Source of the DNA: a virus
Strand: one strand, 5' to 3'
Virus genome (UHGV): UHGV-1380027
DNA: 64,000 bases
Shown: positions 2,701-49,072 of the stretch, in pieces
Layout of the letters: the number at the start of each line of letters is the position of its first letter
Position numbering within the stretch: position 1 is the stretch's first letter
The notes under the pieces: model-generated
What the model was told of the DNA's origin: nothing
Seen by the model: the letters and a program-made list of their open reading frames with translations, nothing else
The model's database searches: none
Position numbers and translations under genes: made by a program

Positions 2701-3240
2701 TCAACACTCTTTGTACTCCACCACGATAATATCTATATCAAAAGTGGCAAGGTTAATAATGTCCTCTACATGTTCCCACTTCAAACCGCCTATGCCGCAC
2801 CCGATCTTAGGGATGTAGAATGGTAAAATCGACCCCTCAAATACTTCATTGACTCGCTCAAATCCTTTCAGTATTGAGAAATATTCAGCATTAGGCCCTG
2901 GGTAGAACTGAGTATACAGATTTATTCCGTAGACAATACCTCTCGGAGATAAGTGCTCCCAGCGGGAGAACGCGCCCAGTTTACTTAGGCAACCGTGCAT
3001 AGTCATTTTATCAGCTTCCAATGCTTGAGGGAACTCACGGGCAATCTGTTTTGCTACACCCTTACCCATTGTGTGGAAGCAGTTACAACCGTGGATCAGG
3101 TGACCAGCACCGCTCTTAAAAAGGGAGATTAAATCTCCCTCTACAGTATCAATAATCACGATATTCCAGCTCCTCTTCCACAATTTCAAAAAACTCAGTC
3201 CAGCACTGTGGCATATTGGAGTTACCGAAGTGGCTTTCAT
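2701..3240 (-). CDS. macro-domain-like protein (ADP-ribose binding/hydrolase fold)
   Basis: motifs HGCNCFHTMGKGVAKQIAREFP, LYTQFYPGP, FYIPKIGCGIGGL and DIDIIVVEY match the order and spacing of macro-domain loops (NAAN..GGGV..AI / HTVGP / AISTGIYG / RIIFCVF); true start may be GTG at 3159 (SD GAGGAG) rather than ATG 3240. Confidence 0.5.
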   Translation of the reverse strand: MKATSVTPICHSAGLSFLKLWKRSWNIVIIDTVEGDLISLFKSGAGHLIHGCNCFHTMGKGVAKQIAREFPQALEADKMTMHGCLSKLGAFSRWEHLSPRGIVYGINLYTQFYPGPNAEYFSILKGFERVNEVFEGSILPFYIPKIGCGIGGLKWEHVEDIINLATFDIDIIVVEYKEC

Positions 3241-3574
3241 AGTAAAGGTTTTTACCGCTCGGAAGATAGAAATCTGTTACCTCATAAAATCCACAATCGT
3301 CGCACTCTCCCTCTTCAAACTTGGCCTTAATCTTAATACCAAGGAAGGTGAAAAGTTTATGGATATCTTCGGTCTCGAACTCCCAACTAATGTTGTTTTC
3401 CGCATCGGTGTAAAACTGGATCAGTAGGCCATCATCCATTTTTCCAAAATATTCTGTGAAGTAGCTCCCTTCCCAGAAGTCTTTGTGACAAATAATATCC
3501 ATGCGCTTGCCCATAATAAAGGTGTGGGCGTTTCGTGCATCGTCACGAATCAGTTTTGGCATTTCATAAATCAT
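3149..3574 (-). CDS. hypothetical protein (141 aa)
   Basis: co-oriented ORF. Confidence 0.5.
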   Translation of the reverse strand: MIYEMPKLIRDDARNAHTFIMGKRMDIICHKDFWEGSYFTEYFGKMDDGLLIQFYTDAENNISWEFETEDIHKLFTFLGIKIKAKFEEGECDDCGFYEVTDFYLPSGKNLYYESHFGNSNMPQCWTEFFEIVEEELEYRDY

Positions 3575-3639
3575 CGTAGTTCTCCAGGATCAATAGGTGG
3601 TGCTACAGGAAGATCATAAAACATGGCGATCACATTCTC

Positions 3640-22129: not shown

Positions 22130-22626
22130 TTATTGCGCTCCTTGTAGTAGATATGACTCCCGAATTGAGCTGTCCTCTGCATCTTTTTTGCCCATTTCGG
22201 TCGTACTTTTGTTGTATGGTAGTGTGTTGCTCCACCTGTTATATCCATAGCCATGTATGCAACATGGTTGTTATTATAGACCTTTAGAAGCATCTTTGCA
22301 AGACTTTTAGCGTGATCCCATGAATCTTTTTCTGTCACCTTAAAAGTTTTGCCGTGGTTTGTCCACGAAAACTGGTTAGGTTGGTAGACAATCTTTCTTA
22401 TAGTGTCTGGGTATTTGGGGTGAGATTTCCTGTTTAGTGTGGCAAATCCGGATGCCAGCATCCCCATCGTGCCATCCCCTCTAGCCTCCCTGTAGATATT
22501 GCATGCTAGAATGTTTTCCTTAGTATCCGACGGCTTGCAAGTGTGATATACTTTTTGTTTTGGTGCTGCAACAACAGGCAGCGATAAAAATGCGCTCAAA
22601 ATAATAGCAAAGATTTTAATTTTCAC
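22126..22626 (-). CDS. secreted cell-wall hydrolase, SleB/CwlJ-like (166 aa) with signal peptide
   Basis: N-terminal signal peptide MKIKIFAIILSAFLSLPVVAAP; motifs CNIYREARGD and YQPNQFSW. Confidence 0.6.
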   Translation of the reverse strand: MKIKIFAIILSAFLSLPVVAAPKQKVYHTCKPSDTKENILACNIYREARGDGTMGMLASGFATLNRKSHPKYPDTIRKIVYQPNQFSWTNHGKTFKVTEKDSWDHAKSLAKMLLKVYNNNHVAYMAMDITGGATHYHTTKVRPKWAKKMQRTAQFGSHIYYKERNK

Positions 22627-22646
22627 AATAGCTCCAAATAGAAAAT

Positions 22647-22662
22647 CCCCGCCGAAGCGGGG
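22647..22662 (-). terminator. rho-independent terminator hairpin (UUCG-loop type)
   Basis: minus-strand RNA CCCCGC-UUCG-GCGGGG followed by AUUUUCUAUUU; the U-tract overlaps the SD of the hydrolase gene. Confidence 0.6.
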
Positions 22663-22675
22663 TGTGTCTTAGAAA

Positions 22676-23056
22676 TTAATCGTAGTGTGCCAAAATCTCT
22701 CCATCGTTGCAAGTCCCCTCTACGAAGTTGTGAAGATTCATGCATTCATCTTGATAGAAGAATTTACCGCTTTTCAGCCGTAGACCAAACAACTCCGCAT
22801 CTCCACGATGGCAAGCCTCTACAAGTTCATAGATTTCATACGGTAATTCCCCATCGTCATGGAAGAACCCCGCTTTATCGTTGACATAGATGAAGAAATA
22901 GTCACTGCTGTCGCAAGCGTCCAGTATTTTAAACCAGATTTCATCCACATCTTTTTCTCGGATATCGATCACACAAGTGGAGCTGCATTCGTACTCCTTC
23001 TCCGGCTCCTCGGTCAATACCACTAGGTAGTTTCCCCGCTTACCTACTTTAGCCAT
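22676..23056 (-). CDS. hypothetical protein (126 aa)
   Basis: co-oriented ORF. Confidence 0.5.
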   Translation of the reverse strand: MAKVGKRGNYLVVLTEEPEKEYECSSTCVIDIREKDVDEIWFKILDACDSSDYFFIYVNDKAGFFHDDGELPYEIYELVEACHRGDAELFGLRLKSGKFFYQDECMNLHNFVEGTCNDGEILAHYD

Positions 23057-23065
23057 ACAACCTCC

Positions 23066-24250
23066 TCAAGCTTTAGCTAAAATGGCGCTAAACTCTTCAC
23101 CAAACTCTTTTACAATCTTCATCAGGTTTGGGTATGCTTTGATCAGCTGAGCAACGATCTTGTCCCTGCCTTTACCAATAAGTAAGGCATTTCCTAAGGC
23201 GTTAGGTTTCATCATCGCCATAAAGACTGAGAATACAAAGTCTCGGTTCTCATCCTTGAAATTTTCCCAAAGGAAATCAAGGAAGTTTGCCACACAGCTG
23301 ACGAGATCTTCGTCGGAGATACTTGCATTTTCCATCATATTACGAATAGCGATACAACCTTCAGACCCCAGAATCCACAAGATGTCTGGCTGCTTAGGAC
23401 CTACATATTCTTTGCAGCCTCCTGCCATAATCCGACCGATTTCTGGCAAGTTTCGTTTCTTGGTGTGGTAGGTCCAAATTTCTACCGCTGCAGTGTGACC
23501 AATTGCACCTTGTAGAAGGACACGGGCCATAGCGTCAGAAATAATACCGCTGTCAAAATCGTGCAGGATGTCAGATGCAGCAACCCAAGATCGCGGTGTA
23601 GCAAAAGATGGACAATTAATCTCAGCCATGGCCTCATAATTATCGATGGCTGATGGGACTCTTTTCAGATATCCAATTACCGAGGAGTGCACCCCATTAA
23701 GGAATGCATAGTCCTCAATAAACACCTCTGCACTGCTTGTAACTTCTACAATGATAAAGCGGTTAGCTAGAGGAGCTTCGAGCGCCGAAAGAACAGCACC
23801 GTCTGTAGCACGGTTACCTGCAGCTACAAAAACAGAGCCCTTAGGAAATGCATAGGTGCCGCACTTGTGGTCGAGCATAATTTGCATTGCAACCTTCTGC
23901 AGGTAGTTATCTGCATGAGTAAGCTCATCTAGAAAGATAATTCCGCTCCAGTCCGGATCTGCAGGCCAAAATTCTGGAATTGCAAACACTGTGCGTGTAG
24001 TCCCATCCGACTCTACAGGGATAGGTAGCCCAGATAAGTCAGCAGGATCTTTATCTGACAACCGCACGTCAACCAGGTTGTCATCTCGCTCACCGAACAT
24101 GTTATCAGCAATCTGCTTCATCACCTGGCTCTTCCCCACGCCCATCGGTCCTAAAATCAGGACAGATCGGTTATGACGCTGGGCAAATTGAATAATAGCT
24201 GGCAACTCGCGGACAGTGATTTGACCACTTTCGAATACGTTTCTTGACAT
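23066..24250 (-). CDS. AAA+ ATPase, MoxR/AAA_5-like (394 aa)
   Basis: Walker A LGPMGVGKSQ, Walker B IIFLDELTHA, sensor-region AAGNRATDG. Confidence 0.65.
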   Translation of the reverse strand: MSRNVFESGQITVRELPAIIQFAQRHNRSVLILGPMGVGKSQVMKQIADNMFGERDDNLVDVRLSDKDPADLSGLPIPVESDGTTRTVFAIPEFWPADPDWSGIIFLDELTHADNYLQKVAMQIMLDHKCGTYAFPKGSVFVAAGNRATDGAVLSALEAPLANRFIIVEVTSSAEVFIEDYAFLNGVHSSVIGYLKRVPSAIDNYEAMAEINCPSFATPRSWVAASDILHDFDSGIISDAMARVLLQGAIGHTAAVEIWTYHTKKRNLPEIGRIMAGGCKEYVGPKQPDILWILGSEGCIAIRNMMENASISDEDLVSCVANFLDFLWENFKDENRDFVFSVFMAMMKPNALGNALLIGKGRDKIVAQLIKAYPNLMKIVKEFGEEFSAILAKA

Positions 24251-24519
24251 TAGTAAAAGTCCTCTACTTGTGTGTAAGTGTTTTCAAAGTTTTCCAAAAC
24301 AGACATCACATCGGATCTGTCAATATCATACGCAACTCTCCAGCCATATGCAACCCTTTCTGCTGTTGCCTCTTCTGGCGCTAGTCGTCTGCTGGCATAA
24401 AAGAGTGTTGGAGTACACTTTCTTGCTTGCCCTCTAACTTTCCCATAATAATATCTGTGAATATCTTTGTCAAAATTTAATTCTTTTTCTGCACGAAGTT
24501 CGTACTGCTGGTATAACAT
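24250..24519 (-). CDS. hypothetical protein (89 aa)
   Basis: co-oriented ORF, start overlaps stop of upstream gene. Confidence 0.45.
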   Translation of the reverse strand: MLYQQYELRAEKELNFDKDIHRYYYGKVRGQARKCTPTLFYASRRLAPEEATAERVAYGWRVAYDIDRSDVMSVLENFENTYTQVEDFY

Positions 24520-25851: not shown

Positions 25852-26747
25852 ATCTCCGCGTAAATTAAACTGGAATCAGTATACTTCTTTAGTGGGTAAA
25901 TATCCTGTCCATAGATGCCGTCATTAAACACCTCATCTACCCAAAGGCTACACTTATATCCCATCATCTCTAAAACACCCATCTCTTCTTCGGTAAACTT
26001 ATCACCGCTCTTGCAAGATGTCAACACCTCATTCTGTACTCTTGCTACCTCGAAGCGATTATTGGCAATATCGCTATTGGCGATCAAATACTCACCTAAA
26101 GGGTGTGCGGCATTAAAGATGCACAGTGGGCGGTTGACGTAATAGTCTCCAGGTGTATAAAAATTATTGAGGTCTTTCACTAGGACATTCTTATCAGTCA
26201 CTTCATTTATAACATCATGCATATCGCACATCTTTATATGTTTGAGGATTCCATCCCCCATCACAAAATAAAAACTTGCTGAGACACTCTCGGCATAGAT
26301 CTTACTAGATCCGTTGTAGTTGTATTTTACTCGGATGCTAACGGGGGTTTTTCCTGTCGCGTTAGCCATCATCCAAAGAAATGGCAGCTCATACTTCTCC
26401 TCTGAGGAAACAAAAGGTGAAGTTGCCAGAGATCGGAAACCTCCAGAGAAGTTGAAAGTTACAGAACCGCTCCGGCGGTATGATACTGCGTATTCCACTT
26501 TTATATCAACATATCCGTTGGAGTAAGTATGCCCTCCATTATCAAGGTATGTCCACTTATCTGACCCAGATACCAACCTCCGCTCAATTACCTTCATCAC
26601 TACAGGGATTAGCGGATTAGTACAAACCGATTTTGAAGTAGCTTTATCATCCAAAGCCTCGTAAATTGCAGAAAGGATATCACCTGCTGAGAGATTGGTT
26701 GTGATATCTTGTTTCCACCTGGTGCTAAAACTGTTAAGATTTGCCAT
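25848..26747 (-). CDS. hypothetical protein (299 aa), first gene of the minus-strand early block
   Basis: preceded by consensus-like promoter and SD TAGGAG. Confidence 0.55.
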   Translation of the reverse strand: MANLNSFSTRWKQDITTNLSAGDILSAIYEALDDKATSKSVCTNPLIPVVMKVIERRLVSGSDKWTYLDNGGHTYSNGYVDIKVEYAVSYRRSGSVTFNFSGGFRSLATSPFVSSEEKYELPFLWMMANATGKTPVSIRVKYNYNGSSKIYAESVSASFYFVMGDGILKHIKMCDMHDVINEVTDKNVLVKDLNNFYTPGDYYVNRPLCIFNAAHPLGEYLIANSDIANNRFEVARVQNEVLTSCKSGDKFTEEEMGVLEMMGYKCSLWVDEVFNDGIYGQDIYPLKKYTDSSLIYAEI

Positions 26748-26787
26748 GAGTAAGTGCTCCTATGTTAGTTTTCTTTTGAATGGGTGC

Positions 26788-26816
26788 ACTATATCGTGGA
26801 TTTAGAGTAAAGTCAA
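26788..26816 (-). promoter_or_regulatory. sigma70-type promoter (TTGACT-N17-TATAGT) for leftward early block
   Basis: on minus strand TTGACT (26816-26811), 17-nt spacer, TATAGT (26793-26788). Confidence 0.55.
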
Positions 26817-26829
26817 TACGTTTTTCAGG

Positions 26830-26858
26830 TTGACATCTTCTCAGGCACTTGGTAAGAT
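26830..26858 (+). promoter_or_regulatory. sigma70-type promoter (TTGACA-N17-TAAGAT) for rightward cassette
   Basis: TTGACA 26830-26835, 17-nt spacer, TAAGAT 26853-26858; divergent to the minus promoter. Confidence 0.5.
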
Positions 26859-26889
26859 TTCTCCACCCACAGAGAACAAGAGACAACTC

Positions 26890-27879
26890 ATGAATCTTGA
26901 AAAATATTATACACCAGAAGAGTTAGAGCGCTTGCTCAAAAAATACAGACGCAAACAGAATAACGCACGGAAACGGGATATAGAGTTCAACCTGTCATGG
27001 GAAGAATATCTCCTATTTGGTAAAAAACTTTTAGGAGAGGGAGTATGCGACTATACCCTTATACCTTTCGACATGCACACAGATGAAAACGGACTGGGAA
27101 ATCCTTTCTACCCATCTCTAGAGCGGATAGATGATGAAGGTCCTTATGCGGTTGATAACTGTTGTGTGGTAGGATTGAGATGCAACTCTCTAAAGGACTG
27201 TCTGGTAGATAAAAAGACCGCAGTCTTGATTAAAGACAAAACTGATCGAAAAATTGTCCAGCAGATGATGCTCCACCTGAGCGAAGAGCGTATGGAGAAA
27301 TTGAAAGGTGATTACACTTTTGAAGATTTCATCTTGCAATATGGAACGGAAGAGGATAAACTAGCACTCTTTGACGAAGAATGGGAGGAAGATATGTCAC
27401 CAATGCAGGATTTTAAAAACTTCATGGCTAATCGTGGAGCCAACAAGCACATTTCTGACATTGTAAACGAGCCTGTAGTAGAGGAGATTGAAGAGATGAC
27501 GCAACAGGCTTACGAAGAGGAAAAAGAGCCTCAAGGGGTCGAAGAAGAGCTTACAGAAGAGGTTCCTGCACTGCCTGACGATGTTGAGATTGCCAAAGCT
27601 TACACTTTCTATTGCCAGACGTTCTACGATGCAGGTATGAAAGTTGATCTGTCATTCAGCCAGTTTAAGAGCACATACATTCGAAAATGTTGTGCTTTAA
27701 CTGGTGAACGTCTCGGTGCCGGACTTAAACCCCTATTAGTTACCGACTGGAACAAAGGTTTCACCAAAGGTAACTTCATGGTAGTATCTCCAATCATGGA
27801 GAAGGCTATGACAGACCTTATGAAGACCACTCGCATGACAATGACCGAGTTGGCTGGTATTTTCAAGCACGTTAAATAA
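26890..27879 (+). CDS. protein with two tandem HNH-like (zinc-ribbon/HNHc-type) modules (~329 aa)
   Basis: FNLSWEEY...CDYT...PSLERIDDEGPYAVDNCCVVGLRCNSLKD and a second degenerate copy CCALTGERL...KGFTKGNFMVVSP; start set to ATG 26890 because track TTG 26830 lies inside the promoter. Confidence 0.35.
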   Translation: MNLEKYYTPEELERLLKKYRRKQNNARKRDIEFNLSWEEYLLFGKKLLGEGVCDYTLIPFDMHTDENGLGNPFYPSLERIDDEGPYAVDNCCVVGLRCNSLKDCLVDKKTAVLIKDKTDRKIVQQMMLHLSEERMEKLKGDYTFEDFILQYGTEEDKLALFDEEWEEDMSPMQDFKNFMANRGANKHISDIVNEPVVEEIEEMTQQAYEEEKEPQGVEEELTEEVPALPDDVEIAKAYTFYCQTFYDAGMKVDLSFSQFKSTYIRKCCALTGERLGAGLKPLLVTDWNKGFTKGNFMVVSPIMEKAMTDLMKTTRMTMTELAGIFKHVK

Positions 27880-27891
27880 TGACAGGGGCCA

Positions 27892-29373
27892 ATGGCCCCT
27901 TCTGGAGTTTTAATGGATAGCAGAAGTTCAGAAATCATTACCGCACAAAAAGATGATGCCTTGCGAATGCTGCAGGCCGCTCGCATGTACCTTCTTGAAA
28001 AGCTGCCGTTTTATGGCACACTGTTGTCAGGGTTGCAGTTCGTAGAAAACCACACATGGTGCTCCACTATGGCAACAGACCATAAACGCATCTACTACAG
28101 TCCTGAGTTCATTATGGGGTTGGCAGATGAGCGTAAAACCATTCTTAAAGCATCTCTGACTGACAAGCAGTTTGAGATGGCTGAAGTTTTCTATTCCCCA
28201 AAATCTGTGAAAGAGGTGGCCTTTCTTCTGTCACATGAGGTGGGGCATATTATCTGTGATCATCTGGTCCGTGGTAAAAGCTTTGAGCCGGAACTGTTCA
28301 ATATTGCTTGTGATCACGTTATCAACACAGGTCTTGTGGTTGACTTTAGCAAGCCTCCTTGTGTTTTCTTCCCGAAGGGGAAAAGCACTGAGTTCGTAAA
28401 AGGTAAGCCTTTTGGCTTCTTAGCCAGTTGCTACTGCGACATGGAGTTTCATGGATGGATTGCTGAGAACGTCTATGCAGTTCTTGATAAACAAAGAGAT
28501 CAGAATAGCGGTAAAAGTAAGAACGGTAAAGGTGAGAACTCCCAAGGAGATAAACGACAAACCGATGATCACATGAGTGGGAACGGTGGCACCAGTGATG
28601 ATCTTGGAAAGGCTATGGGGTATGATCAGCCGCAACCAGTAATCAGTCAATCTGATAAAGATCAGGCCATGCAGGACTCTGGTGACATGTTGGAAGCAGC
28701 AATGCAAGCTTCAGGAGGTCGTTGCCCCGAGGCGGTGCGCGAGTTTGTCAAAAACAGAGGCAAGCCTGTAATCAATTATATAGATATTATTAAGCAACGT
28801 ATGTTATCTAAAAGAAAGGCTGAGTTAACCTACAGAAAACCTGGTCGCCGATCTGGGTCTTTGACCACCACAATGCGAAAAGTTGGAGCTATAAACAAGA
28901 ATCAACACGTTATTGTTCCTGGTCGTAATCCGGAAAACACTATAGATATTGTAGTGGCTTTAGACGTTTCTGGATCGATCTCACAAAGAACTTTAAAGAA
29001 AATGTTCAATGAGATCACCGGGTTGTGCAATTTGTATAAAGAGTTTAAGGTTACGATGTTCTGTTGGTCAACCGAGGTTGGAGAGGTTAAAGTATACACT
29101 CGCGGTAACATCGATGAGATGATCAACTATGAGGTCCACTCAACATGGGGCACAACAGCCGCCTGCGTGTTCGAGTATCTGGATGCTAACATACCGAATG
29201 CAAAAGATGTCATCGTCCTTACCGATCTCTACTTTGAGCATAACTTTGAACAAAAGGCTGTTGACAACAAGTGGAAAAAGTACGATACTTTATGGGTTCT
29301 CACTGAAGGGTATAATAAAAATTATATCCCGAGCTTTGGGAAAACTGTGGAATTAATCGAGTACGTTAAATAA
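27892..29373 (+). CDS. putative metallopeptidase (HExxH) + von Willebrand factor A domain protein (493 aa)
   Basis: SHEVGHIICDH zinc-binding motif in N-terminal half; MIDAS motif VVALDVSGSIS in C-terminal half. Confidence 0.6.
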   Translation: MAPSGVLMDSRSSEIITAQKDDALRMLQAARMYLLEKLPFYGTLLSGLQFVENHTWCSTMATDHKRIYYSPEFIMGLADERKTILKASLTDKQFEMAEVFYSPKSVKEVAFLLSHEVGHIICDHLVRGKSFEPELFNIACDHVINTGLVVDFSKPPCVFFPKGKSTEFVKGKPFGFLASCYCDMEFHGWIAENVYAVLDKQRDQNSGKSKNGKGENSQGDKRQTDDHMSGNGGTSDDLGKAMGYDQPQPVISQSDKDQAMQDSGDMLEAAMQASGGRCPEAVREFVKNRGKPVINYIDIIKQRMLSKRKAELTYRKPGRRSGSLTTTMRKVGAINKNQHVIVPGRNPENTIDIVVALDVSGSISQRTLKKMFNEITGLCNLYKEFKVTMFCWSTEVGEVKVYTRGNIDEMINYEVHSTWGTTAACVFEYLDANIPNAKDVIVLTDLYFEHNFEQKAVDNKWKKYDTLWVLTEGYNKNYIPSFGKTVELIEYVK

Positions 29374-29388
29374 AGGAGGAGATTATTT

Positions 29389-29652
29389 ATGGCAACAGAG
29401 TTAAAATTTGCATCCAACCGTAAAACTAAGAAGTATCTGTCTTCAGTAGCTCCAGGTACTGTGGTGATGTTTGTTGATGAACTTGGAGATGTGAATACAG
29501 CACTTGTTGTGAGATCACATCCTGCAAACATATATGTTGGGGTATTTGACCTGTTCAGAAAGGTGTTTGCAGAACTACCTCACACCTTGGTTGTTACAGA
29601 AATGGATGCCTGCATAGAAATTCTTGGCGAAGTTATGGTGGAGGAACAATAA
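29389..29652 (+). CDS. small protein, tandem paralog 1 of 4 (87 aa)
   Basis: SD AAGGAGGAG; shares GTVV...FDL...LP...VTE.D..I.ILGE pattern with next ORF. Confidence 0.6.
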   Translation: MATELKFASNRKTKKYLSSVAPGTVVMFVDELGDVNTALVVRSHPANIYVGVFDLFRKVFAELPHTLVVTEMDACIEILGEVMVEEQ

Positions 29653-29915
29653 TGGCTACTAGCATTGTATTCAATTCTAAAGTGAAGAACAAAAAGCGTG
29701 CAGACAGTTTTCCATGTGGGACCGTGGTAAGTTGTGACGGAGACGGCATTCAAAACATAGTTATGATTGTCAAAACAGGGGAACATTGTGTATGGGGGTT
29801 CGATTTAGAAAATAATGAGTTGTACGATCTGCCACCAAACATGAAAGTTACAGAGCTTGACACCAAAATTACCATCCTTGGAGAGACAAGCTATTCAAAA
29901 GAAGGAGGAGAATAA
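29652..29915 (+). CDS. small protein, tandem paralog 2 of 4 (87 aa)
   Basis: TAATG overlap with upstream gene, SD GGAGGAA. Confidence 0.6.
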   Translation: MATSIVFNSKVKNKKRADSFPCGTVVSCDGDGIQNIVMIVKTGEHCVWGFDLENNELYDLPPNMKVTELDTKITILGETSYSKEGGE

Positions 29916-30178
29916 TGACCACGAAAATCACCATTGCAGAACCAAAAGCTAACACGCAACCTATCGAAAAGTTTAAATGCGGTGAGGTGGTAACATTTAC
30001 ACCAGATAATGAAGATGCTAAGATTTTTGCCATGGTAACAGCCGAGTGGATGTGTGACAATACCACACAGGTGCTGCGTTTTGACACCTATCTTACAGAT
30101 GAAATCAGGAACGACAAGATCGTGACTGGTGTGGATACTGAGATTATTTTCTACAAGAGCTTTTTAGAGGGTTTCTGA
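29915..30178 (+). CDS. small protein, tandem paralog 3 of 4 (87 aa, more diverged)
   Basis: TAATG overlap, SD AAGGAGGAG; same length, FKCGEVV and VTGVDTEIIF motifs. Confidence 0.55.
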   Translation: MTTKITIAEPKANTQPIEKFKCGEVVTFTPDNEDAKIFAMVTAEWMCDNTTQVLRFDTYLTDEIRNDKIVTGVDTEIIFYKSFLEGF

Positions 30179-30179
30179 T

Positions 30180-30413
30180 ATGGCAAAAATTCGTAAATTA
30201 TCCAGCAATCAGGTTGTGAAAGACTTTGAATCTGGAGAGATCTTGTATGTCCGTGATGCAGATGATGAATGTGAAGATCTTGTTATGCTGGTAGGGCACG
30301 CTGAAGACGGATGCATCCAGGCTGTTTTTCTTGAAACAGCGATGGTGCACTGGATAGAGCTGGACCTGAAAGCACGAAAACCTAAAGCAGAAATCATTAT
30401 TTACGAAGATTAA
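30180..30413 (+). CDS. small protein, tandem paralog 4 of 4 (77 aa, most diverged)
   Basis: immediately follows paralog 3; FESGEIL motif at conserved position. Confidence 0.5.
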   Translation: MAKIRKLSSNQVVKDFESGEILYVRDADDECEDLVMLVGHAEDGCIQAVFLETAMVHWIELDLKARKPKAEIIIYED

Positions 30414-30429
30414 CAAGAAGGAGAGAGCC

Positions 30430-30879
30430 GTGTTGAGCAAACGTGAATGCGACAGCATTAGCCTGAATTCTTATAAGAAACAATGGTTTGGGGTAGAAGT
30501 TTGCCGACTACGGCTGGGCTCCTACTTGAACTTCGTCTATTATGAGAGTGACAGTCGTATCGTTTCTTATGAAGTGTTCTACACTAAGAATACATTCGAG
30601 CTGAGACGTAAGGTGGATGGCGGGAGATCTACCGCCCAGAATAATTGGGAAACTATTCTGCCTCCAGATGTTATAGGAAGTCCCCTGAATGTATCTGAAG
30701 ATGAAAATCTTATGGTTCATGCTATGATGGGACTTGACAGCTTAGAGCTGGCGATCTATGATATGTCTATCGAAGCAGTTAAGCTGGACTACATCGAAAA
30801 CACTTTAGAGGAAGGTATCAAGAAGTTTCTCGGTGAGAAATTGAAAGCCCACTTTCATAAGAAGCTATATCTGTTATGA
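30430..30879 (+). CDS. hypothetical protein (149 aa), GTG start
   Basis: SD AAGAAGGAGAGAG directly upstream of GTG. Confidence 0.5.
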   Translation: MLSKRECDSISLNSYKKQWFGVEVCRLRLGSYLNFVYYESDSRIVSYEVFYTKNTFELRRKVDGGRSTAQNNWETILPPDVIGSPLNVSEDENLMVHAMMGLDSLELAIYDMSIEAVKLDYIENTLEEGIKKFLGEKLKAHFHKKLYLL

Positions 30880-31121
30880 AGACCCGTAAAGAACGTAACA
30901 AGATTTTACCTGGCGCTCTCGAACACATGATGAAGTGCAGATCTATCTGGCACTCTGCCAAGGAGGGGCAGCATGTGGTCGTGGTTAGTGATAATGCCAA
31001 CCCGTTCGGTGATTATGTCACCATGATGACTCCATACATCCGCGACGGTGTTGTGGAAGTGGTTCCTTATAGTGGTCTGCATGAGAGGCATTTTGAGAGC
31101 ACTTTGCTAGTGGAGCTATAA
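30876..31121 (+). CDS. hypothetical protein (81 aa)
   Basis: ATGA overlap with upstream gene. Confidence 0.5.
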   Translation: MKTRKERNKILPGALEHMMKCRSIWHSAKEGQHVVVVSDNANPFGDYVTMMTPYIRDGVVEVVPYSGLHERHFESTLLVEL

Positions 31122-31123
31122 TT

Positions 31124-31690
31124 ATGGCGGTCAATGTGGCTTACAACACAGGAAAGCTTGACAGAGACATTGGGTGTCTTGTCCTTTCAGATACAGAGGA
31201 GTATTGGGGTTATGGGTTGCTGTCAGACCCACACCCGAGCAACCTTGTATCAACAGTGCTATATCGCTACGACCCTGTACCAACGGTGCACGACAAAGAT
31301 ATTCACGACCTTCGGGTCAAGTGTCTGGAAGATCTTCTGAACAATGGCTGCAACGATCTGCAGGTAGCCAAGGAGAAGCTTACAAACATCCACAAAGAGG
31401 AAGTGATGAGCACCCTCAGTAAGAGGTCAGTGCACAAAAAGATGATGCTGAACTTTGCAATGGGTATCTACATGGATGGGTATAAGGGAGGGGATCCGAT
31501 CCTCAAGCTTCGCTGCCCAACACTGTGGGAAAGAGTGGTTGACAGTAAGGACGGTACTGCCCTGCTAGAACTCCACACTGCAGGTTGGATTTGGCGGTAT
31601 GTAGACGGATACCCTCTGTGGGCATGTGGACCCGGTGAGTTTGTTGACAGACCTAGCGCGGTGGTGGATTTGCTATTGCAGTTTGAATAA
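31124..31690 (+). CDS. hypothetical protein (188 aa)
   Basis: co-oriented ORF. Confidence 0.5.
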   Translation: MAVNVAYNTGKLDRDIGCLVLSDTEEYWGYGLLSDPHPSNLVSTVLYRYDPVPTVHDKDIHDLRVKCLEDLLNNGCNDLQVAKEKLTNIHKEEVMSTLSKRSVHKKMMLNFAMGIYMDGYKGGDPILKLRCPTLWERVVDSKDGTALLELHTAGWIWRYVDGYPLWACGPGEFVDRPSAVVDLLLQFE

Positions 31691-31746
31691 AAGGTGAGTT
31701 ATAAAGCATTCATACACCTATCAACAATACAACAAGAGAGACTGAG

Positions 31747-32022
31747 ATGACGAAAGAAGAAGCTGACGTATTAGACTTTGCACTAGAGGCTACGCAAGAG
31801 GCTCTAGTGTTAGCTTGGAAAATGAACCAACGTGCTGCAGAATGCAACCGCCGAATCAATGAGATCCTGGGTATGTCTATGTATGATTTCACCATGCATG
31901 CTGGAGAGATTCCTGAATTAACTGCTGAGATGAATGATCTTGACAATAAAATTAATATCATTCTGAAGACAGCAGAAACAACTCACCAAACCGCCCGTAA
32001 ATTTATCAACGAGAAGGTGTGA
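31747..32022 (+). CDS. hypothetical protein, predicted helical/coiled-coil (91 aa)
   Basis: co-oriented ORF. Confidence 0.5.
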   Translation: MTKEEADVLDFALEATQEALVLAWKMNQRAAECNRRINEILGMSMYDFTMHAGEIPELTAEMNDLDNKINIILKTAETTHQTARKFINEKV

Positions 32023-32024
32023 AT

Positions 32025-32498
32025 ATGGACTACAGCTACTGCGGAGAAGAAGTACCTTTTAACTACAGCAATCTCACCACGAGCAATCCATATGAGACTC
32101 GTCACGGCACGCATATCATTGCTATTGACTTTGATGGAACGTTTAATGCGAGCCCTTTCATCTTCTCCCGCCTTATTAAGGACCTGAAGAAGGAGGGGTG
32201 GACAGTCTATCTTGTGACTTTCCGATTCATCACTCAAGACAACGTGGACATCGAATACTGGCGCAAGGAGCTCGATGTTGGAGTGTTTTATACTGGAGGC
32301 GTTCAGAAGGCCGCTTATCTGGCGCAGTTTGATATCTACCCAGACATCTGGGTTGATGATTCTCCAGCTTGCATTCCGGCTAAGAATCAGTTAGAGTTTG
32401 CAATGAAGGAGATTGAGTATAAGTCTGACGCTAAGCGTAACGGATGGCCCTTTATTATTGAAGATTACCCAGATCCTGAACCGGAGAAAGAACCATGA
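32025..32498 (+). CDS. HAD-superfamily phosphatase, 5'(3')-nucleotidase-like (~157 aa)
   Basis: motif I IAIDFDGTF, motif IV DIWVDDSP; start set to ATG 32025 (SD GAGAAGG), track begins at GTG 32019. Confidence 0.5.
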   Translation: MDYSYCGEEVPFNYSNLTTSNPYETRHGTHIIAIDFDGTFNASPFIFSRLIKDLKKEGWTVYLVTFRFITQDNVDIEYWRKELDVGVFYTGGVQKAAYLAQFDIYPDIWVDDSPACIPAKNQLEFAMKEIEYKSDAKRNGWPFIIEDYPDPEPEKEP

Positions 32499-32665
32499 AA
32501 CGAAGATACCATTACGTGATGTGGAAGTTATATCATGGTGCTGCTAAGGCTTATCGAGCCGTGTTTGGTAATGACAATCACTGCATTATGTTACACCTTA
32601 CATCCATTGAGCATCACAATGAGTGGATTCGTGAAATCGTAATAGGTGACAAAGACTTTAAGTAA
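32495..32665 (+). CDS. possible small ORF (56 aa)
   Basis: ATGA overlap with upstream stop, SD GGAGAAAG; below track cutoff. Confidence 0.3.
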   Translation: MKRRYHYVMWKLYHGAAKAYRAVFGNDNHCIMLHLTSIEHHNEWIREIVIGDKDFK

Positions 32666-32695
32666 AGTATGGCTTTCTAGATGGAGACTGACTAA

Positions 32696-33076
32696 ATGTG
32701 CAAGTGTAAATCTTATAATTGGAAAGTGAAAGGTGCCAAGCATCCAAATGTTATCGTTGATGTGCCTAAAAAGCTCCGTGACGGCAAAAAACGTGTGTGC
32801 CTTGATAAGTGCATGGCTAAACCTATCATGAGTCTATGGGCGGCAGGATTGAAAACTCTAAACTGCTGCTGTGGTCATAACAAAGATGTTCCAAGCATCA
32901 TTATCCCAGAGGATGCAGACCCTAAAGCTTATGCCAAAATACTGACTCGCTACCCCAGCACCTTTCTGATCGGAAAATGGTGTCACGATGAACTTCAATG
33001 GTGGATAGCGTACGGTAGTGTAGGTGCTGCTTTTGGCTTCCCAGCTTTGTCAGAGCGCTACGTCAAATCGTCATAA
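32696..33076 (+). CDS. Cys-rich hypothetical protein (126 aa)
   Basis: SD GGAGA; motifs CKCK, CLDKC, NCCCGHN. Confidence 0.5.
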   Translation: MCKCKSYNWKVKGAKHPNVIVDVPKKLRDGKKRVCLDKCMAKPIMSLWAAGLKTLNCCCGHNKDVPSIIIPEDADPKAYAKILTRYPSTFLIGKWCHDELQWWIAYGSVGAAFGFPALSERYVKSS

Positions 33077-33180
33077 TCTGTTTTAAGGCCTCAAACGAGG
33101 CCTGTGCCTTCATAAACTGCCTACCTCTGTGTGATTACCTCTCTAAATAAAATACCCTCTCAAATTGCTTAAAATTAAGC

Positions 33181-33209
33181 TTGACATCAACACCAGATTT
33201 ATATATATG
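33181..33209 (+). promoter_or_regulatory. sigma70-type promoter candidate (TTGACA-N17-TATATG)
   Basis: TTGACA 33181-33186 with AT-rich -10 region 33202-33209; in the 165-nt gap before 33242 gene. Confidence 0.4.
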
Positions 33210-33241
33210 ATTATCTCATCAACCAAGCAGAGGAGATTGTC

Positions 33242-33649
33242 ATGGATAATCTTGCAAGTGTGAACGTCGAAATTGTTAAACTAAAGTTCTTGGGCTTTCG
33301 AGACCCTAATTCTCTAACAGCTATACTGATGGATACCCACTTCACACCTGGGAAAGAGTACACTGCCTTCCGTTATATTTGTGGAGATCACGAATCGGCC
33401 TATAGTGTGAATACAAACCTCGGCGAGGGGTATTTCATCAAAGATATCACAGATCACTTGTGGGGTATGTGGGAATTGGTGGAAGAAGAGAATAAATCCC
33501 TTCCCAAAGAGATTTGGGTGCACACCTTCCACACAGGTAAGTTCGGAGGTACGGAACATAAGTCTATCCACTATGAAGAAGAAAGTGCCATCAAACAACA
33601 AGCTGTGCTTGGTGGATCTGTAGAAAAATTTGTTAAATGCGAGGACTGA
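33242..33649 (+). CDS. hypothetical protein (135 aa)
   Basis: SD GAGGAG 6 nt upstream of ATG. Confidence 0.55.
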   Translation: MDNLASVNVEIVKLKFLGFRDPNSLTAILMDTHFTPGKEYTAFRYICGDHESAYSVNTNLGEGYFIKDITDHLWGMWELVEEENKSLPKEIWVHTFHTGKFGGTEHKSIHYEEESAIKQQAVLGGSVEKFVKCED

Positions 33650-33652
33650 GAA

Positions 33653-33853
33653 ATGGCTGATTTTTGTAAAGATTGCTCTGAAGAGTTGTTTGGCTTTGAC
33701 TGCAAAGATTTGGAAGGTCTGATCACTGAGGATCAGTGGAAGGAAGGCTATGCAGCACCTGTTATTTGTGAAGGTTGTGGCTATACCTATGTTGACCATA
33801 AAGGTAAGCGCGTCAAGCCGTCTGAAGATGGGGCATGTTGGGAGTATTACTAA
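33653..33853 (+). CDS. small zinc-ribbon-like protein (66 aa)
   Basis: CKDC ... CEGCG cysteine pairs; SD GAGGA. Confidence 0.5.
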   Translation: MADFCKDCSEELFGFDCKDLEGLITEDQWKEGYAAPVICEGCGYTYVDHKGKRVKPSEDGACWEYY

Positions 33854-33866
33854 CTATAAAAAGAAA

Positions 33867-33891
33867 GGGGCCATTTGGCCCCCCTTTTTTT
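33867..33891. terminator. bidirectional rho-independent terminator between convergent blocks
   Basis: GGGGCC-ATTT-GGCCCC stem-loop flanked by AAAAGAAA upstream and TTTTTTT downstream. Confidence 0.7.
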
Positions 33892-33903
33892 ATCTACTAC
33901 TTG

Positions 33904-36900
33904 TTAAAGAGAGAAAGTCGCGTAGGCTCCCAGACGATACTGCTGGTCACCAGGGAACATAACACCTATAGAGGCTGTCCCTAGAATCCTGCCTTCCTTT
34001 CCAGACTCCATTCTGAACCCTACCCATCCTGAACTCCTTGCAGCCTCGATGTTGTCGCTATACCCGAAAGTGGCAAGATCGTCAACACCAGCCCCAAACA
34101 GCAACTGAAGCTGACTTCTCGGAAGCCCTATAATTTCAGGAATATATGCACCAAAGTACACCATCTGCCCTACCTTAGGACCGCTGCCGTACTCCATCGG
34201 CTTGCTTGTAGCAAAAGTCTTCATACCAGAAGTCCCTGCCGGATTAGGGTATGCCCCGTTTGTTGCTGTACCTATCCACATTCTCCACTGTGGTGTCATC
34301 TGTTTGACAGTAAAAGATGTTGAAGACGTTTTGCGACCTGCATCATCAGTAGCTACAAACTTTATAGTGACATTACCAGGAGCTTTAAATGTTACCAGCC
34401 CTGTGGTAGCATCCACTGTTGCAATGTTGGTATTACTGCTTTCCCAAGTCTTTCTAATCCCAGACACATTGGAAGGGGTAATAGAAGGTTCCTGCATCTG
34501 CAGTTTACCACCCACAATCCCTATGCCGTTACCTGGGTTATACAACGCACCAACTTCATCTATAATGTTACCTGCCTTGAGACTGTACTTCCTTGAGAAG
34601 TTGTAAGTTCCGTTATAAGCGTGTGTCCCTGAGAAGGTGACATCTGCTTTTCCGTAAGAGATGCAAACCAAAGCATACTTCCTGTCAGGCAACGTTTCTC
34701 CAGTCTCTGGGTGAGTTTTACCTACCTGGAACACACTCGGGTCAGTGGAGTCGTGGCTATCACTAACGGAGCTTGGACCACCCATCAGTTGTGACAAGCA
34801 ATTCCTTACCCATGTCCAGTTATTGTCACTGGAGAAGTCTACGGTCAAATCAAACACAACCCACTCATTTGGCTTCCACACAGGTGTTGTGATCAACTTA
34901 CCAACACCCCCACCCTGAAGAGTAGGAGATTGTTCAGTGATCAGGGCAGAGTATGCCAGAGTGCCCAACTGCATAGTCTGGCTTGCTGTCCTCACTACCT
35001 TAGAATCAGCATCTGTGAAGTTGTTGATGATCTGGAATGTGCCATAAGTGTTTTTACAGGTAATTCTGGCGTTCAGTGTGTCAATCTTCCTCACATCTGC
35101 CATAGCAGTGTTAGACACAGAGAAGTCAGAAGCTTTAGCTGAGTTTGCCGCAACAGCAGGATCAACGTTAAGAGTTGCGTTGAACTGACAAGCAGGGGTA
35201 ACCAGCAGCTTGTTATCACCTATTTGCTTCCATGAAACACTTTGAACAGGGAGATTCCATTTAATACCTGAGAAAACTTTAGCAACCCTTGGTCCCAGGG
35301 CTCCAGTCCTGTTGTCTTTACAGCACATGGACATGGTGATCGTTGACGGAGTTGCCTGACCAAACAATTGCTGTGCTTTTACAGAGGACATAGTGTAGAA
35401 ATTGTCCTTAACAAACTCATCAGCCGCTAACGATCCGTCAGATCTCCACCATTGTACCTGGTAGCCTGTCTTATCCCAGCCACCAACCTGCTTCAAGTCC
35501 TCCCAAGAGATTTCCAGATCCCCAGTGGTAGGGTTGATTGCCGCAGTTCCTGGTGTTCCAGATGACCATATTGGGATATCGAACCACGCTGGTTTAACAG
35601 ACTGCACTGCGTTAGGTCCTATTGCAGCAGCAAGTTGTTGACCCATCAATACGCGAGCATCTTTCACCAGGCCCCGCTCAATCATAGATCCAGAGTAACC
35701 CTCTTTCTTATATGCAGAGGACCCGTTCAAATGGATGAGCCTGCTGCAGTCGAAGCCATACGCTCCACCACCATTAGGGTCTGCGAAGTTAGTTATGATT
35801 CTATCCCTAATATTTTTCCATGCCCTACCCCCAATCTCGTAGTCATGGTCATAACATCTTTGCAGCGTTGTCCAGCAAATGATTGCCATTCTTCTGCCAC
35901 CTGTAAACCCGAAAGCGCCGTCATTCAACTCTTTCCACAGGTAGCAGTTAGTTGTCCACATAGCTCTGTGAATGTTGAACCAGTTTATGGACTTGGCTGA
36001 GTTATCCCACTGAGTCCCAGGTAATTCAGGCCACACTGCATTAACCAGCATGTCTTCTGTTCCTGCATCAACCAAGAACCCTCTTACCTTTTTACCCATG
36101 CCTACCCTGTCTTTTGCAATCCAACTGCCAAACAATCTCAGTTTTGGACCGTAAACAACATCTTCCGGATGCTCAAAAGAGACATACTTTAAGTAGATTG
36201 TTGGGTCACCGTAGGTGCCATCACAAACACTTTTGTGCATGTTTTCGCCAAGATCTAGACGAAGCCCTGTCACCACTTTAGACGTGTCAGTGAATTTGTC
36301 TGTTAAATCAAATTCATACCACCACCATCCACCACCAAGCATAAATTTCTTGCATCGAGTATTGTCTGTATCAGATATTCTCTTATCCCCTGCAAAAGGT
36401 GAATCAGCAAACTGATAATGCAGAGCAGTCTCGAATAGATGTGTTGAGGTTCCGTTTTCTGCAAGAACTTGCTTACCTATTAAGTCGCACTTAATGATCA
36501 TCACAACACGTTTGTACCCGTTTGTTACTGGAACTTGCATAGATATGGATGTTCCGTCCATGTTCGATCTTAGTGCTGTCATGATGATATATGGGTCAAC
36601 AGCGTTGCCTAAAGTTTCAGGCCCTGGGATTATCTTGTACTTCTTAACCTGCCCCATGAACCTGTCACTGGCGTAAGTTGCAGCCTCAAAGCAAGATCCT
36701 CCATTAGGCAGTTCGCCAGGACCCCAGAAAAATGCGCCATAACAGTTATAAAACCACTTGTTAGGGTCGTATTTGTTCTTGAAGGTCTGAACCTCGTTAG
36801 CCTGTTTTGTCAAGAAAACCTGCGTATCTGTAAAGATTGCAGGATTTACTCTCGCCTGACGTGGAGGGTACCCTGTCGATTGGTTAAACCACTGATTACA

Positions 36901-48992: not shown

Positions 48993-49072
48993 GTCACTCC
49001 TCCGGTATGAAAATCTCTACAAGGTATTTTACCAAATTTTGTAACAATAGTCAATCTGAGCATAAAAATAAA

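Follow-up and report, generated by a model that had tools for sequence, protein, structure and literature searches.

The oppositely oriented 7-kb block described here, part of a 64,000-nucleotide stretch of the virus genome UHGV-1380027 (the window), proves to be a conserved rightward transcription unit, published in 2013 as genes 11–26 of phage rV5, and not a newly acquired accessory cassette. It probably forms the rightward arm of a bidirectional control region conserved in rV5-type phages. The window belongs to a Vequintavirus (rV5-like coliphage), with 99.9% identity to ECP26.

Layout of the rightward unit

The opposite orientation of the block, as stated in the original prediction, is confirmed. 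Fifteen tightly packed plus-strand ORFs (g1 to g15) occupy positions 26890–33853 and are flanked on both sides by minus-strand genes; outside 26830–33853, every ORF of at least 100 aa that is compatible with the gene map lies on the minus strand. This layout agrees with the annotations of ECP26, Gotham, and EmilHeitz. In rV5, the transcription unit "genes 11-26" was defined by Kropinski et al. (2013, Virol J 10:76; PMC3606486), together with the promoters P010/P011, P020, and internal P025 and the terminators t026/t027. The proposed independent regulation of the block, through a promoter and a terminator of its own, is backed by the sequence and agrees with this published map.

Promoters and terminators

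The divergent intergenic gap measures 142 bp (26748–26889), and a promoter scan recovered both of the back-to-back sigma70-like promoters that had been predicted within it, each scoring 10/12. The leftward promoter (rV5 P010; 26788–26816, minus strand; TTGACT-N17-TATAGT) heads the arm encoding an AAA+ ATPase and is of the same sequence class as P010 in Table S4 of Kropinski et al. (2013; PMC3606486). The rightward promoter (rV5 P011; 26830–26858, plus strand; TTGACA-N17-TAAGAT with an extended -10 TG) heads the block. Consensus matches this strong are frequent in the region (49 observed vs 32.7 expected), and since such hexamer pairs are common by chance, the real support for the divergent promoters comes from their position and conservation. 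The plus promoter of PVP-SE1, KP12, and LNA4 keeps TTGACA-N17-(G/T)A(T/A)(A/G)AT around a divergent spacer sequence. Its hexamers are conserved across genera, Seunavirus and the KP12-type Klebsiella phage included. Across the left arm and the block, the gaps between genes contain eight near-consensus sigma70-type promoters scoring at least 10/12, seven of them with a perfect TTGACA -35. An internal promoter (rV5 P025; 33181–33211, plus strand; TTGACA-N19-TATGAT or N17-TATATG) is kept even where the genes 3' of it differ between genomes.

The symmetric GC hairpin with U-tracts that had been predicted to close the block was likewise found, as a bidirectional intrinsic terminator (rV5 t026/t027; 33856–33891, both strands). 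Its stem-loop, GGGGCCATTTGGCCCC at 33867–33882, has an A-tract on its 5' side and a T-tract on its 3' side, and folds stably on both strands (-18.6 kcal/mol on the plus strand and -20.4 on the minus strand), with none of 200 shuffled sequences equally stable. Of five relatives, four keep the stem, which is one base shorter in EmilHeitz, while the loop is variable. The block shares this terminator with the lateral tail-fibre gene, which runs convergently and has its stop codon at 33904.

Three further hairpins were located. A GC hairpin, GGGGCCAATGGCCCC, lies between g1 and g2 (27885–27899) and is possibly an attenuator or a 3'-end stabiliser; the sister genus likewise has a hairpin at the equivalent position. 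Another, AGGCCTC-AAAC-GAGGCCT (33086–33103, plus strand), lies 3' of g13 and lacks a U-tract; among relatives its stem is constant and its loop reads AAAC, AAAA, or TTTT. In the leftward arm, CCCCGCTTCGGCGGGG, with a T-run after it (rV5 t003; 22647–22662, minus strand), probably closes the first operon read leftward from P010.

Conservation and plasticity

The original prediction read the block as consistent with an accessory (moron-like or host-interaction) unit. As such a cassette it would be horizontally acquired, dispensable, equipped with its own promoter and terminator, and inserted between early and tail modules. The promoter pair and terminator would suit such an origin, as would the many small ORFan genes, whose homologues are confined to the genus, and the approximately 70% nucleotide identity of g15 with the unrelated Felixounavirus genomes. 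However, the block and the adjacent rIIA–ATPase backbone co-occur in the same 122 phage records with the same junctions, and in 113 records at least 80% of the block is covered as one colinear piece including both junctions. The block matches its flanks in GC content, and its GC skew has equilibrated to the sign that fits the strand on which it is coded. No flanking repeats, inverted ones included, were found at the block ends, and domain and profile searches of its gene content found no mobility or recombinase genes. In the sister genus, eight of the 15 genes are syntenic, with the order g1, g2, g7–g12 kept, as is the whole left arm (m1–m8), and g1, g2, and the ATPase show 61–73% protein identity; in Seunavirus and the KP12-type Klebsiella phage three to four genes are syntenic, g1, g2, and g11 among them. 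The predicted partner of g2, moreover, is encoded outside the block. The universality of the block contradicts an accessory reading of the whole, which we consider very unlikely. Of two observations that had been named as contrary to that reading, universal presence with near-identical content was found, whereas co-transcription with structural genes was not, the two units being convergent at the terminator.

Only two spots are plastic. The first (29404–29903) takes in g3 and g4, a duplication for which rV5, FFH2, nomine, and HMD-6 have a single 85-aa gene. The second, the g14 slot, lies downstream of the internal promoter and holds 109-aa and 72-aa genes in FFH2 and 85-, 109-, and 125-aa genes in HMD-6. 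In the distal arm of the sister genus, small ORFs follow each of several perfect sigma70 promoters, an arrangement that would also suit an accessory origin. Moron-like turnover is limited to this distal sub-unit (33139–33627) and to the change in g3/g4 copy number.

The zincin-VWA protein and its ATPase partner

The second gene, g2 (27913–29373, 486 aa), combines an N-terminal zincin (HEVGH at 108) with a C-terminal VWA domain (MIDAS DVSGS at 351). Pfam matches to DUF2201_N (2.1e-28) and DUF2201 (3.5e-11), with conservation of both HExxH and the MIDAS motif (DxSxS) in eight lineages, bear out its description as a metallopeptidase/vWA protein. Its cognate partner is predicted to be the AAA+ ATPase of the leftward arm (23066–24250, minus strand), annotated as MoxR and placed by its profile in the AAA_5/midasin clade; against Pfam AAA_5 the window ATPase falls under the cut-off. 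The bidirectional promoter stands between the two genes, which are 3.66 kb from each other and on opposite strands. In 61 of 80 other viral loci their homologues sit side by side in the same direction; the opposite-strand arrangement is limited to 15 loci of the rV5/Seunavirus-type clade (g2 identity 43–99%), all 15 of which also carry g1. This separation by a bidirectional promoter is a modest addition to what is published.

That the ATPase and g2 are co-directional elsewhere and opposite here indicates that some rearrangement did occur, and it could suggest a recent inversion or an invertible segment, in which the block would have been turned around within a genome that was co-directional at first. 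We find this scarcely credible. Because the arrangement is common to the whole 15-locus clade, the opposite-strand state must be old; the orientation relative to the flanks is identical in all sampled genomes, the GC skew matches the present orientation, and the block has neither inverted repeats at its ends nor a recombinase gene.

The remaining gene products

The first gene, g1 (26890–27879, 329 aa), encodes an Srd-like protein. Residues 13–110 match PHROG HMMs of the endonuclease VII and Srd types, with E-values of 2.7e-12 and 4.5e-10 against the Srd PHROGs over the N-terminal ~95 residues. In the AF2 model an acidic disordered linker connects two folded domains, and the top Foldseek matches are HNH nucleases, at weak E-values of 0.04–0.3. 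The predicted HNH-like tandem module is partly confirmed: the fold is HNH-like but degenerate, with no invariant histidine, and homology between the N- and C-terminal halves was not significant.

Four small paralogs had been predicted downstream. Homology is clear between the small acidic protein g3 (29389–29652, 87 aa) and its recent paralog g4 (29652–29915, 87 aa; E 7.6e-10), and profile comparison relates g5 (29915–30178, 87 aa) to them as a distant paralog (hhalign 81%, E 1.3e-5). The fourth, g6 (30180–30413, 77 aa), is similar in size and position but showed no significant homology to g3–g5 in pairwise or profile comparison. The genes g7 (30430–30879, 149 aa; also weakly kept in PVP-SE1), g8 (30876–31121, 81 aa), g9 (31124–31690, 188 aa), g10 (31747–32022, 91 aa), and g12 (32495–32665, 56 aa) are kept in the sister genus. 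For g11 (32025–32498, 157 aa), the predicted HAD phosphatase is probable: four HAD motifs (DxDxT at 35–39, T65, K95, and DD at 111–112) are invariant across genera, but no Pfam or PDB sequence match was found and the structure model was poor. Cys-rich small proteins were present as described, namely the Cys/His-rich g13 (32696–33076, 126 aa; MCKCKSYN... and a CCCGHN motif; eight Cys) and g15 (33653–33853, 66 aa; CxxC...CxxC; six Cys), which flank the hypervariable g14 (33242–33649, 135 aa).

Proposed mechanism and timing

We propose that host sigma70 RNA polymerase would initiate at the two back-to-back promoters. Leftward transcription would cover eight genes, including the AAA+ MoxR-like ATPase, and end at the hairpin at 22647–22662. 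The rIIA/rIIB and replication genes lie further downstream on the leftward strand. Rightward transcription would cover g1–g13, and the second promoter at 33181 would drive g14–g15. The hairpin at 33867–33882 would halt transcription of the rightward unit and of the tail-fibre operon facing it, and neither would then read antisense into the other. The products, comprising the Srd-like protein, the zincin-VWA protein, the probable HAD phosphatase, and small genus-specific proteins, would be non-structural and probably prereplicative (early or middle), with g2 working together with the ATPase from the opposite arm. Most of the proteins have no assignable function, which counts against this reading. 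The literature search turned up neither transcriptomes nor mapped transcription starts or 3' ends for Vequintavirinae, so the timing is inferred. Promoter use and protein functions are likewise deduced, whereas sequence and comparison directly show the layout, the signals, the conservation, and the domain content.

The unit could instead serve morphogenesis, with middle/late or constitutive expression, the AAA+/VWA-peptidase pair acting on the adjacent tail or tail-fibre proteins as a chaperone-protease for assembly; its adjacency to the tail module would follow from this. A homologous MoxR–vWA-peptidase pair of jumbo phages was proposed to function in virion assembly and peptidolytic processing, with the MoxR-VWA system of Acidianus two-tailed virus cited in that proposal (Iyer et al., 2021; PMC7824862), and later expression would suit such a role. 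The block adjoins lateral tail-fibre genes, g7 carries the PHROG label "tail protein", and sigma70-like promoters are dispersed across the entire rV5 genome (Kropinski et al., 2013; PMC3606486), so promoter type alone leaves the timing unfixed. Nevertheless, we judge this reading unlikely. In N4-like phages, Plateaulakevirus, and Certrevirus the pair lies among DNA-metabolism or small early-type genes rather than structural ones; the rV5 late motif GGTAAAAT is confined to tail-module gaps and absent from those of the block; the block is convergent to the tail genes and not transcribed with them; no virion mass-spectrometry evidence exists for any of rV5 gp11–26; and the label on g7 has no supporting domain match. 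Expression as the probably prereplicative rightward arm remains the preferred reading.

Comparison with known systems

Morons of lambdoid and other phages are promoter-gene-terminator units inserted between backbone genes. The block resembles them in having its own promoter and terminator and in the turnover of the g14 slot between close relatives, but differs in being genus-universal as a whole, compositionally typical, and syntenic across genera, with the g2 partner outside. For g1, the closest parallel is T4 Srd, historically the "decoy of sigma70/sigmaS" and described as activating RNase E against host mRNA (Qi, 2015); rV5 gp11 was linked to it by PSI-BLAST (Kropinski et al., 2013; PMC3606486). 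The likeness lies in the Srd PHROG families matched by the N-terminal ~95 residues, whereas the second folded domain and acidic linker belong to g1 alone, and BLAST with g1 gave no T4 match. A host-interaction role for the Srd-like protein is plausible on this resemblance.

Among MoxR AAA+/VWA pairs, such as RavA-ViaA and the jumbo-phage pair, g2 is of the same metallopeptidase-VWA fusion type, and the jumbo-phage homologues align to it at 27–29% identity. Here, in contrast, the genes of the predicted pair are on opposite strands, flanking a bidirectional promoter. In Certrevirus, of the same subfamily, sigma70-like promoters similarly cluster where the ORFs are short and hypothetical, a region that was read as early (Buttimer et al., 2020; PMC7344957); its ATPase and g2 homologue are, however, co-directional, and its strand switch lies elsewhere. 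The closest system is rV5 genes 11–26 itself, the same locus in a 92–93% identical genome, which shares the promoter hexamers, the internal promoter, the GGGGCC...GGCCCC bidirectional terminator, and the gene order. It differs in having one 85-aa gene where the present genome has two copies (g3 and g4), in annotating 441 + 81 aa in place of the single 486-aa g2 ORF, and in P020, whose counterpart here is poor in both its -10 and its spacing.

Layout and published counterpart

The plus-strand block consists of 15 ORFs (g1 to g15, in order) at 26890-33853, which in the ORF lists are separated by gaps of mostly -4 to +56 nt and one of 165 nt. Minus-strand genes lie on both sides, and the original prediction of a strand-inverted unit holds. 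The 7.2 kb at 26700-33900 are 99.9% identical to Escherichia phage vB_EcoM-ECP26 and 92-94% identical to more than 100 further Vequintavirus (rV5-like) genomes. In the well-annotated relative EmilHeitz, the minus-strand genes to the right of the block encode lateral and short tail fibres and baseplate proteins; those to the left include a 'fucosyltransferase-like' gene, five small genes, an AAA+ 'MoxR' ATPase, a cell-wall hydrolase, rIIA/rIIB, a helicase, methyltransferases, a primase/helicase, and DNA polymerase. A 399-bp stretch at 3241-3639 that had seemed to be non-coding was rejected as a gap, because an ORF at 3149-3574 covers it. No Rfam match was found in 26000-34500 at E-values up to 1, and no tRNAs were found within the window.

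The block is the same locus as a unit described in rV5, colinear with it at both junctions, and rV5 variants reach 93% identity. The rV5 genome was divided into four transcriptional units, one of them genes 11-26, and gp11 was judged to be probably homologous to Srd (Kropinski et al., 2013; PMC3606486). Table S4 of that study (PMC3606486) lists promoters P010(-), TTGACTTTACTCTAAATCTCCGATATAGT, P011(+), TTGACATCTGTTGAGACAATTGATACGAT, and P025(+), upstream of gene 25, and terminators t026(+) and t027(-), GGGGCC..GGCCCC. The window has the same elements as P010, P011, P025, and t026/t027, with matching sequences for P010, P011, and t026/t027, and the deposited record of phage Gotham carries features from PhagePromoter and ARNold at these positions. 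The strand-inverted block is an already published feature of rV5 and not new. What is new here, and of modest interest, is that the AAA+ and VWA-zincin partners are split, and where the plastic spots lie.

Backbone or accessory cassette

The block had been read as an accessory, moron-like cassette. A megablast search with the cassette returned 122 records (102 Escherichia, 16 'Campylobacter', 2 'Phage', 1 Shigella, and 1 Vequintavirinae sp.), and a backbone query spanning rIIA to the ATPase gene (20147-24250) also returned 122, with an identical breakdown. In 113 records there was a single colinear match over at least 80% of 26700-33900 at more than 90% identity, this query extending into the final codons of the genes on either side; the presence of each of g1-g15 was scored at 10 loci and from summary BLAST counts. 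GC content is 0.40-0.47 inside the block vs. 0.41-0.48 outside. GC skew runs from +0.07 to +0.18 within the block, is negative beyond it, and tracks the coding strand, as would be expected for a long-established orientation; the same skew switches were noted in rV5 (Kropinski et al.; PMC3606486). The block has no flanking direct or inverted repeats, domain searches found no recombinase or transposase within it, and GC, skew, and flanking repeats gave no sign of atypical base composition or recent acquisition.

The 16 GenBank records titled 'Campylobacter phage' (host Campylobacter jejuni), which came up in searches with both 26700-33900 and 20147-24250, are Vequintavirus genomes of full length that share more than 92% identity with coliphages. 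Their host labels are probably mis-assigned or contaminant-derived.

The arrangement extends beyond the genus. In two metagenomic contigs of a sister genus (L017 and L018), the g1, g2, and ATPase proteins are 61-73% identical to those of the window; the left arm keeps the order of m1-m8 (the genes of the leftward arm) and rIIA, the right arm carries g1, a hairpin, g2, one small gene, and g7, g8, g9, g10, g11, and g12, and the strand switch is marked by a GC hairpin. These and two further IMG/VR contigs (L017-L020; 118-141 kb) apparently represent a distinct sister genus with the same divergent-arm architecture, their g2 being 61% and their ATPase 73% identical to the window proteins. Among more distant Vequintavirinae, the Seunavirus phages PVP-SE1 and LNA4 and a KP12-type Klebsiella phage have g1, g2, and g11 on the plus arm in the same divergent layout, and PVP-SE1 also keeps g7, weakly.

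Taken together, distribution, composition, lack of mobility signatures, the sister genus, and the distant relatives argue that the block is backbone and not an island. The block does have its own promoter and terminator at the sequence level, as a moron would, but presence or absence at the same backbone position was seen only for two small segments, 29404-29903 and 33139-33627, and not for the block. The accessory reading is thus unsupported for the block as a whole, which shares its 122 records with the backbone, has typical GC and no flanking repeats, and is syntenic across genera; moron-like turnover stands for the two sub-regions. The correction is that the strand-inverted block is a fixed part of the Vequintavirus backbone rather than a mobile accessory island, and its dispensability should not be assumed when therapeutic-candidate phages are engineered or minimised.

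Plastic spots

When FFH2, nomine, and HMD-6 were aligned with the window, two replaced segments emerged, which show where gene turnover happens in the genus. At 29404-29903, the window has g3 and g4 vs. one 85-aa gene in rV5, FFH2, nomine, and HMD-6. The segment at 33139-33627 is a slot behind an internal promoter, occupied by the 135-aa g14 in the window and rV5, by unrelated 109-aa and 72-aa genes in FFH2, and by 85-, 109-, and 125-aa genes in HMD-6. The internal TTGACA promoter and the hairpin before it are kept in all genomes compared (window, rV5, FFH2, nomine, and HMD-6). The distal arm of the sister genus has three more near-perfect sigma70 promoters, with small ORFs behind each; with the g14-slot swaps, this points to moron-like turnover only in the promoter-led distal part of the arm. 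The distal plus arm of L017-L020 is dense in perfect sigma70 promoters.

The g14 protein is itself modular (window 33242-33649; compared loci L009, 6896-7114, and L011, 7172-7549). The N-terminal ~70 residues correspond to the 72-aa gene that stands alone in FFH2, the C-terminal ~45 match three further PHROG families, and HMD-6 has a hybrid of both forms. The last gene, g15 (33653-33853), encodes a 66-aa CxxC...CxxC protein, and over ~190 bp it is ~70% identical at the nucleotide level to a gene carried by many Felixounavirus (Felix O1-like) phages; the 60-80% identity band held 268 records, mostly Felixounavirus-type g15 matches. This similarity suggests exchange between unrelated myovirus groups.

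Promoters, terminator, and timing

The predicted back-to-back sigma70-like promoters are present at the sequence level, both inside the 142-bp gap at 26748-26889. The plus promoter (P011 equivalent; 26830-26858, +) reads TTGACA-N17-TAAGAT with TG ahead of the -10, and the minus promoter (P010 equivalent; 26816-26788, -) reads TTGACT-N17-TATAGT; both have -35 and -10 hexamers 17 bp apart, and the plus promoter lies ahead of the first gene and is kept in relatives. Hexamer pairs of equal quality are not rare in this DNA, with 49 found vs. 32.7 expected in shuffles. The corresponding gap of PVP-SE1, LNA4, and KP12 carries TTGACA-N17-GATAAT immediately ahead of the g1 homologue, with differing spacer sequences. 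Position and conservation therefore make a stronger argument for promoters than the hexamer match itself.

The bidirectional terminator was likewise found, as a GC-rich stem-loop, GGGGCCATTTGGCCCC, at 33867-33882 (both strands), with an A-tract before and a T-tract after it providing U-runs at the ends of both transcripts. Its folding energy is -18.6 kcal/mol (+) and -20.4 kcal/mol (-), and none of 200 shuffles was equally stable. The stem GGGGCC/GGCCCC is kept in four of five relatives, that of EmilHeitz being one base shorter, while the loops vary among the five (ATTT, GTTT, AAAT, GTCT, and AAAC). A hairpin after g1, at 27885-27899, is conserved in five close relatives, and the sister genus has a different GC hairpin in the same place between g1 and g2.

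Near-consensus sigma70-type promoters occur in left-arm intergenic gaps at 2250, 2704, 3937, 7713, and 26816 and in cassette gaps at 26830 and 33181, all with a perfect TTGACA -35 except that at 26816 (TTGACT). The equivalent of rV5 P020 (31644), with a 21-nt spacer and weak -10 in the window, was not counted. The motif GGTAAAAT, the proposed rV5 late-promoter core TggTAaAAtA (Kropinski et al., 2013, Table S4; PMC3606486), was found in two tail-module gaps, at 49033 and 54537 (-), and in no gap of the early arms or cassette; one of the two gaps also has a 10/12 sigma70-like match (49054) overlapping the motif. Separately, an 11/12 match, TTGACA-N17-TATTAT, at 24445-24473(-) lies inside an 89-aa ORF (24250-24519), with the start of the AAA+ ATPase gene ~195 nt downstream, and the ATPase may have its own promoter there besides P010.

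The block is probably a prereplicative operon, which would be driven by the host polymerase. This reading is favoured by the sigma70-type promoters, with the late motif in tail gaps, by the gene content, and by the lack of virion detection, there being no virion mass-spectrometry evidence for any of rV5 gp11-26. The g1-g2 hairpin (27885-27899) may give differential expression of g1, and the bidirectional terminator would insulate the convergent early and late units. The literature searched yielded no Vequintavirinae transcriptome (the temporal RNA-seq that surfaced was of a Kagunavirus), so block timing, promoter use, and all protein functions are what we infer.

Proteins of the block

The first gene product, g1, had been described as an HNH-like tandem protein. 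Its N-terminal ~95-180 residues match PHROGs labelled endonuclease VII, 'decoy of sigma70', and Srd, the Srd matches being phrog_4592 (2.7e-12, residues 13-107) and phrog_1400 (4.5e-10, residues 13-191). The T4 protein attaches to RNase E, in the N-terminal half of the enzyme, and speeds host mRNA decay, an activity known for T4 Srd only. An AlphaFold model from 12 sequences (mean pLDDT 79) is folded at 1-160 and 228-329 with a disordered acidic linker between, and its top Foldseek matches in the PDB were the HNH nucleases PacI, McrA, and Cas9 HNH, all weak (E 0.04-0.3, TM at most 0.5). A nuclease role is nevertheless unlikely, since the 12 homologues share no invariant histidine and the usual catalytic position reads S-x-E-R-I-D. 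The tandem claim had as its sole basis a similar order of secondary-structure elements in the predicted model; hhalign of the N- and C-terminal domains, from a five-sequence alignment, gave a probability below 1%, and BLAST detected no internal repeat. The HNH-like tandem description is confirmed only in part.

The metallopeptidase/vWA assignment of g2 (27913-29373, +) is borne out by a DUF2201_N zincin and a DUF2201 VWA domain (Pfam DUF2201, 3.5e-11), with HEVGH and the MIDAS motif DVSGS (351; DxSxS) kept across eight lineages that range from Vequintavirus to N4-like and jumbo phages. It is labelled 'HNH endonuclease' or 'anti-sigma factor' in PHROGs, in RefSeq, and in several records; the former label is a propagated error for a zincin plus VWA protein. 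The gene is a single 486-aa ORF in the window and most relatives, and rV5 annotates two ORFs there, of 441 and 81 aa (genes 12/13), probably through a frameshift or annotation artefact in the record. The 'tail protein' label of g7 (30430-30879) also looks wrong, having neither a supporting domain nor virion mass-spectrometry evidence.

Of the four small paralogs proposed, g3 and g4 are clearly related and g5 distantly so (hhalign 81%, E 1.3e-5), while paralogy of g6 to g3-g5 is not significant. For the proposed HAD phosphatase, g11, motifs I (DxDxT), II (T/S), III (K), and IV (DD) are all present in order, and D35, D37, T39, T65, K95, D111, and D112 are invariant across four lineages. However, it had no match in Pfam, NCBIfam, or PDB sequence searches (PDB by single sequence and profile), and its model, from a four-sequence alignment too shallow for an informative fold search (pLDDT 54), gave a few HAD matches, all with E above 0.02. 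The Cys-rich small proteins are g13 and g15, by Cys content. The g13 family (32696-33076) is Cys/His-rich and conserved; its members share a CCCGHN motif and the N-terminal sequence MCKCKSYN.K.KGAKHPN, which is invariant, and relatives diverge in the C-terminal half. It had no match in Pfam, PHROG-function, or PDB searches, and a homologue search gave unannotated relatives only. PADLOC found no defence family among seven cassette and three left-arm proteins, only a trivial P-loop match; NCBIfam gave no match for eight cassette proteins, and PDB sequence searches with g1, g11, and g2 returned nothing useful.

The ATPase and VWA-zincin pair

The gene at 23066-24250(-) encodes an AAA+ ATPase. The window protein is sub-threshold for Pfam AAA_5 (16.9 bits vs. 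a cut-off of 22). Hits to AAA_5 at 7.6e-8 came from two of the seven members of the family, and a profile of the family hit midasin AAA domains at 1.6e-11. Certrevirus, Septuagintavirus, Asteriusvirus SP27, Litunavirus LIT1, and Plateaulakevirus 2L372D encode the ATPase immediately upstream of the g2 homologue and in the same orientation. Among 80 IMG/VR loci encoding a g2 relative, it was upstream on the same strand in 61 (within 1.5 kb in 58) and on the opposite strand at 3.5-5.3 kb in 15; these 15 coincide exactly with the loci showing 43-99% identity to g2, and every one carries g1. Most phages encode the pair in one direction, and only the rV5/Seunavirus-type clade has a bidirectional promoter between the two genes. 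Separation of ATPase and g2 by a bidirectional promoter region, as in the window, is therefore a derived state shared across the clade.

It is conceivable, though we consider it rather improbable, that in this clade an ancestral ATPase-then-VWA-zincin operon was split around a bidirectional promoter with an Srd-like gene, that the pair is made in parallel very early and acts on host targets as a takeover protease or remodeller, not in virion assembly, and that 33139-33627 (+) is a hot spot swapping small host-interaction or anti-defence genes. For the homologous jumbo-phage pair, a virion-assembly role has been proposed (Iyer et al., 2021; PMC7824862). The comparison offers a concrete handle on a widespread phage pair of putative partner proteins. 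Unlike a MoxR-VWA chaperone pair with adjacent genes in one operon, the two genes of the window lie on opposite strands, 3.66 kb apart.
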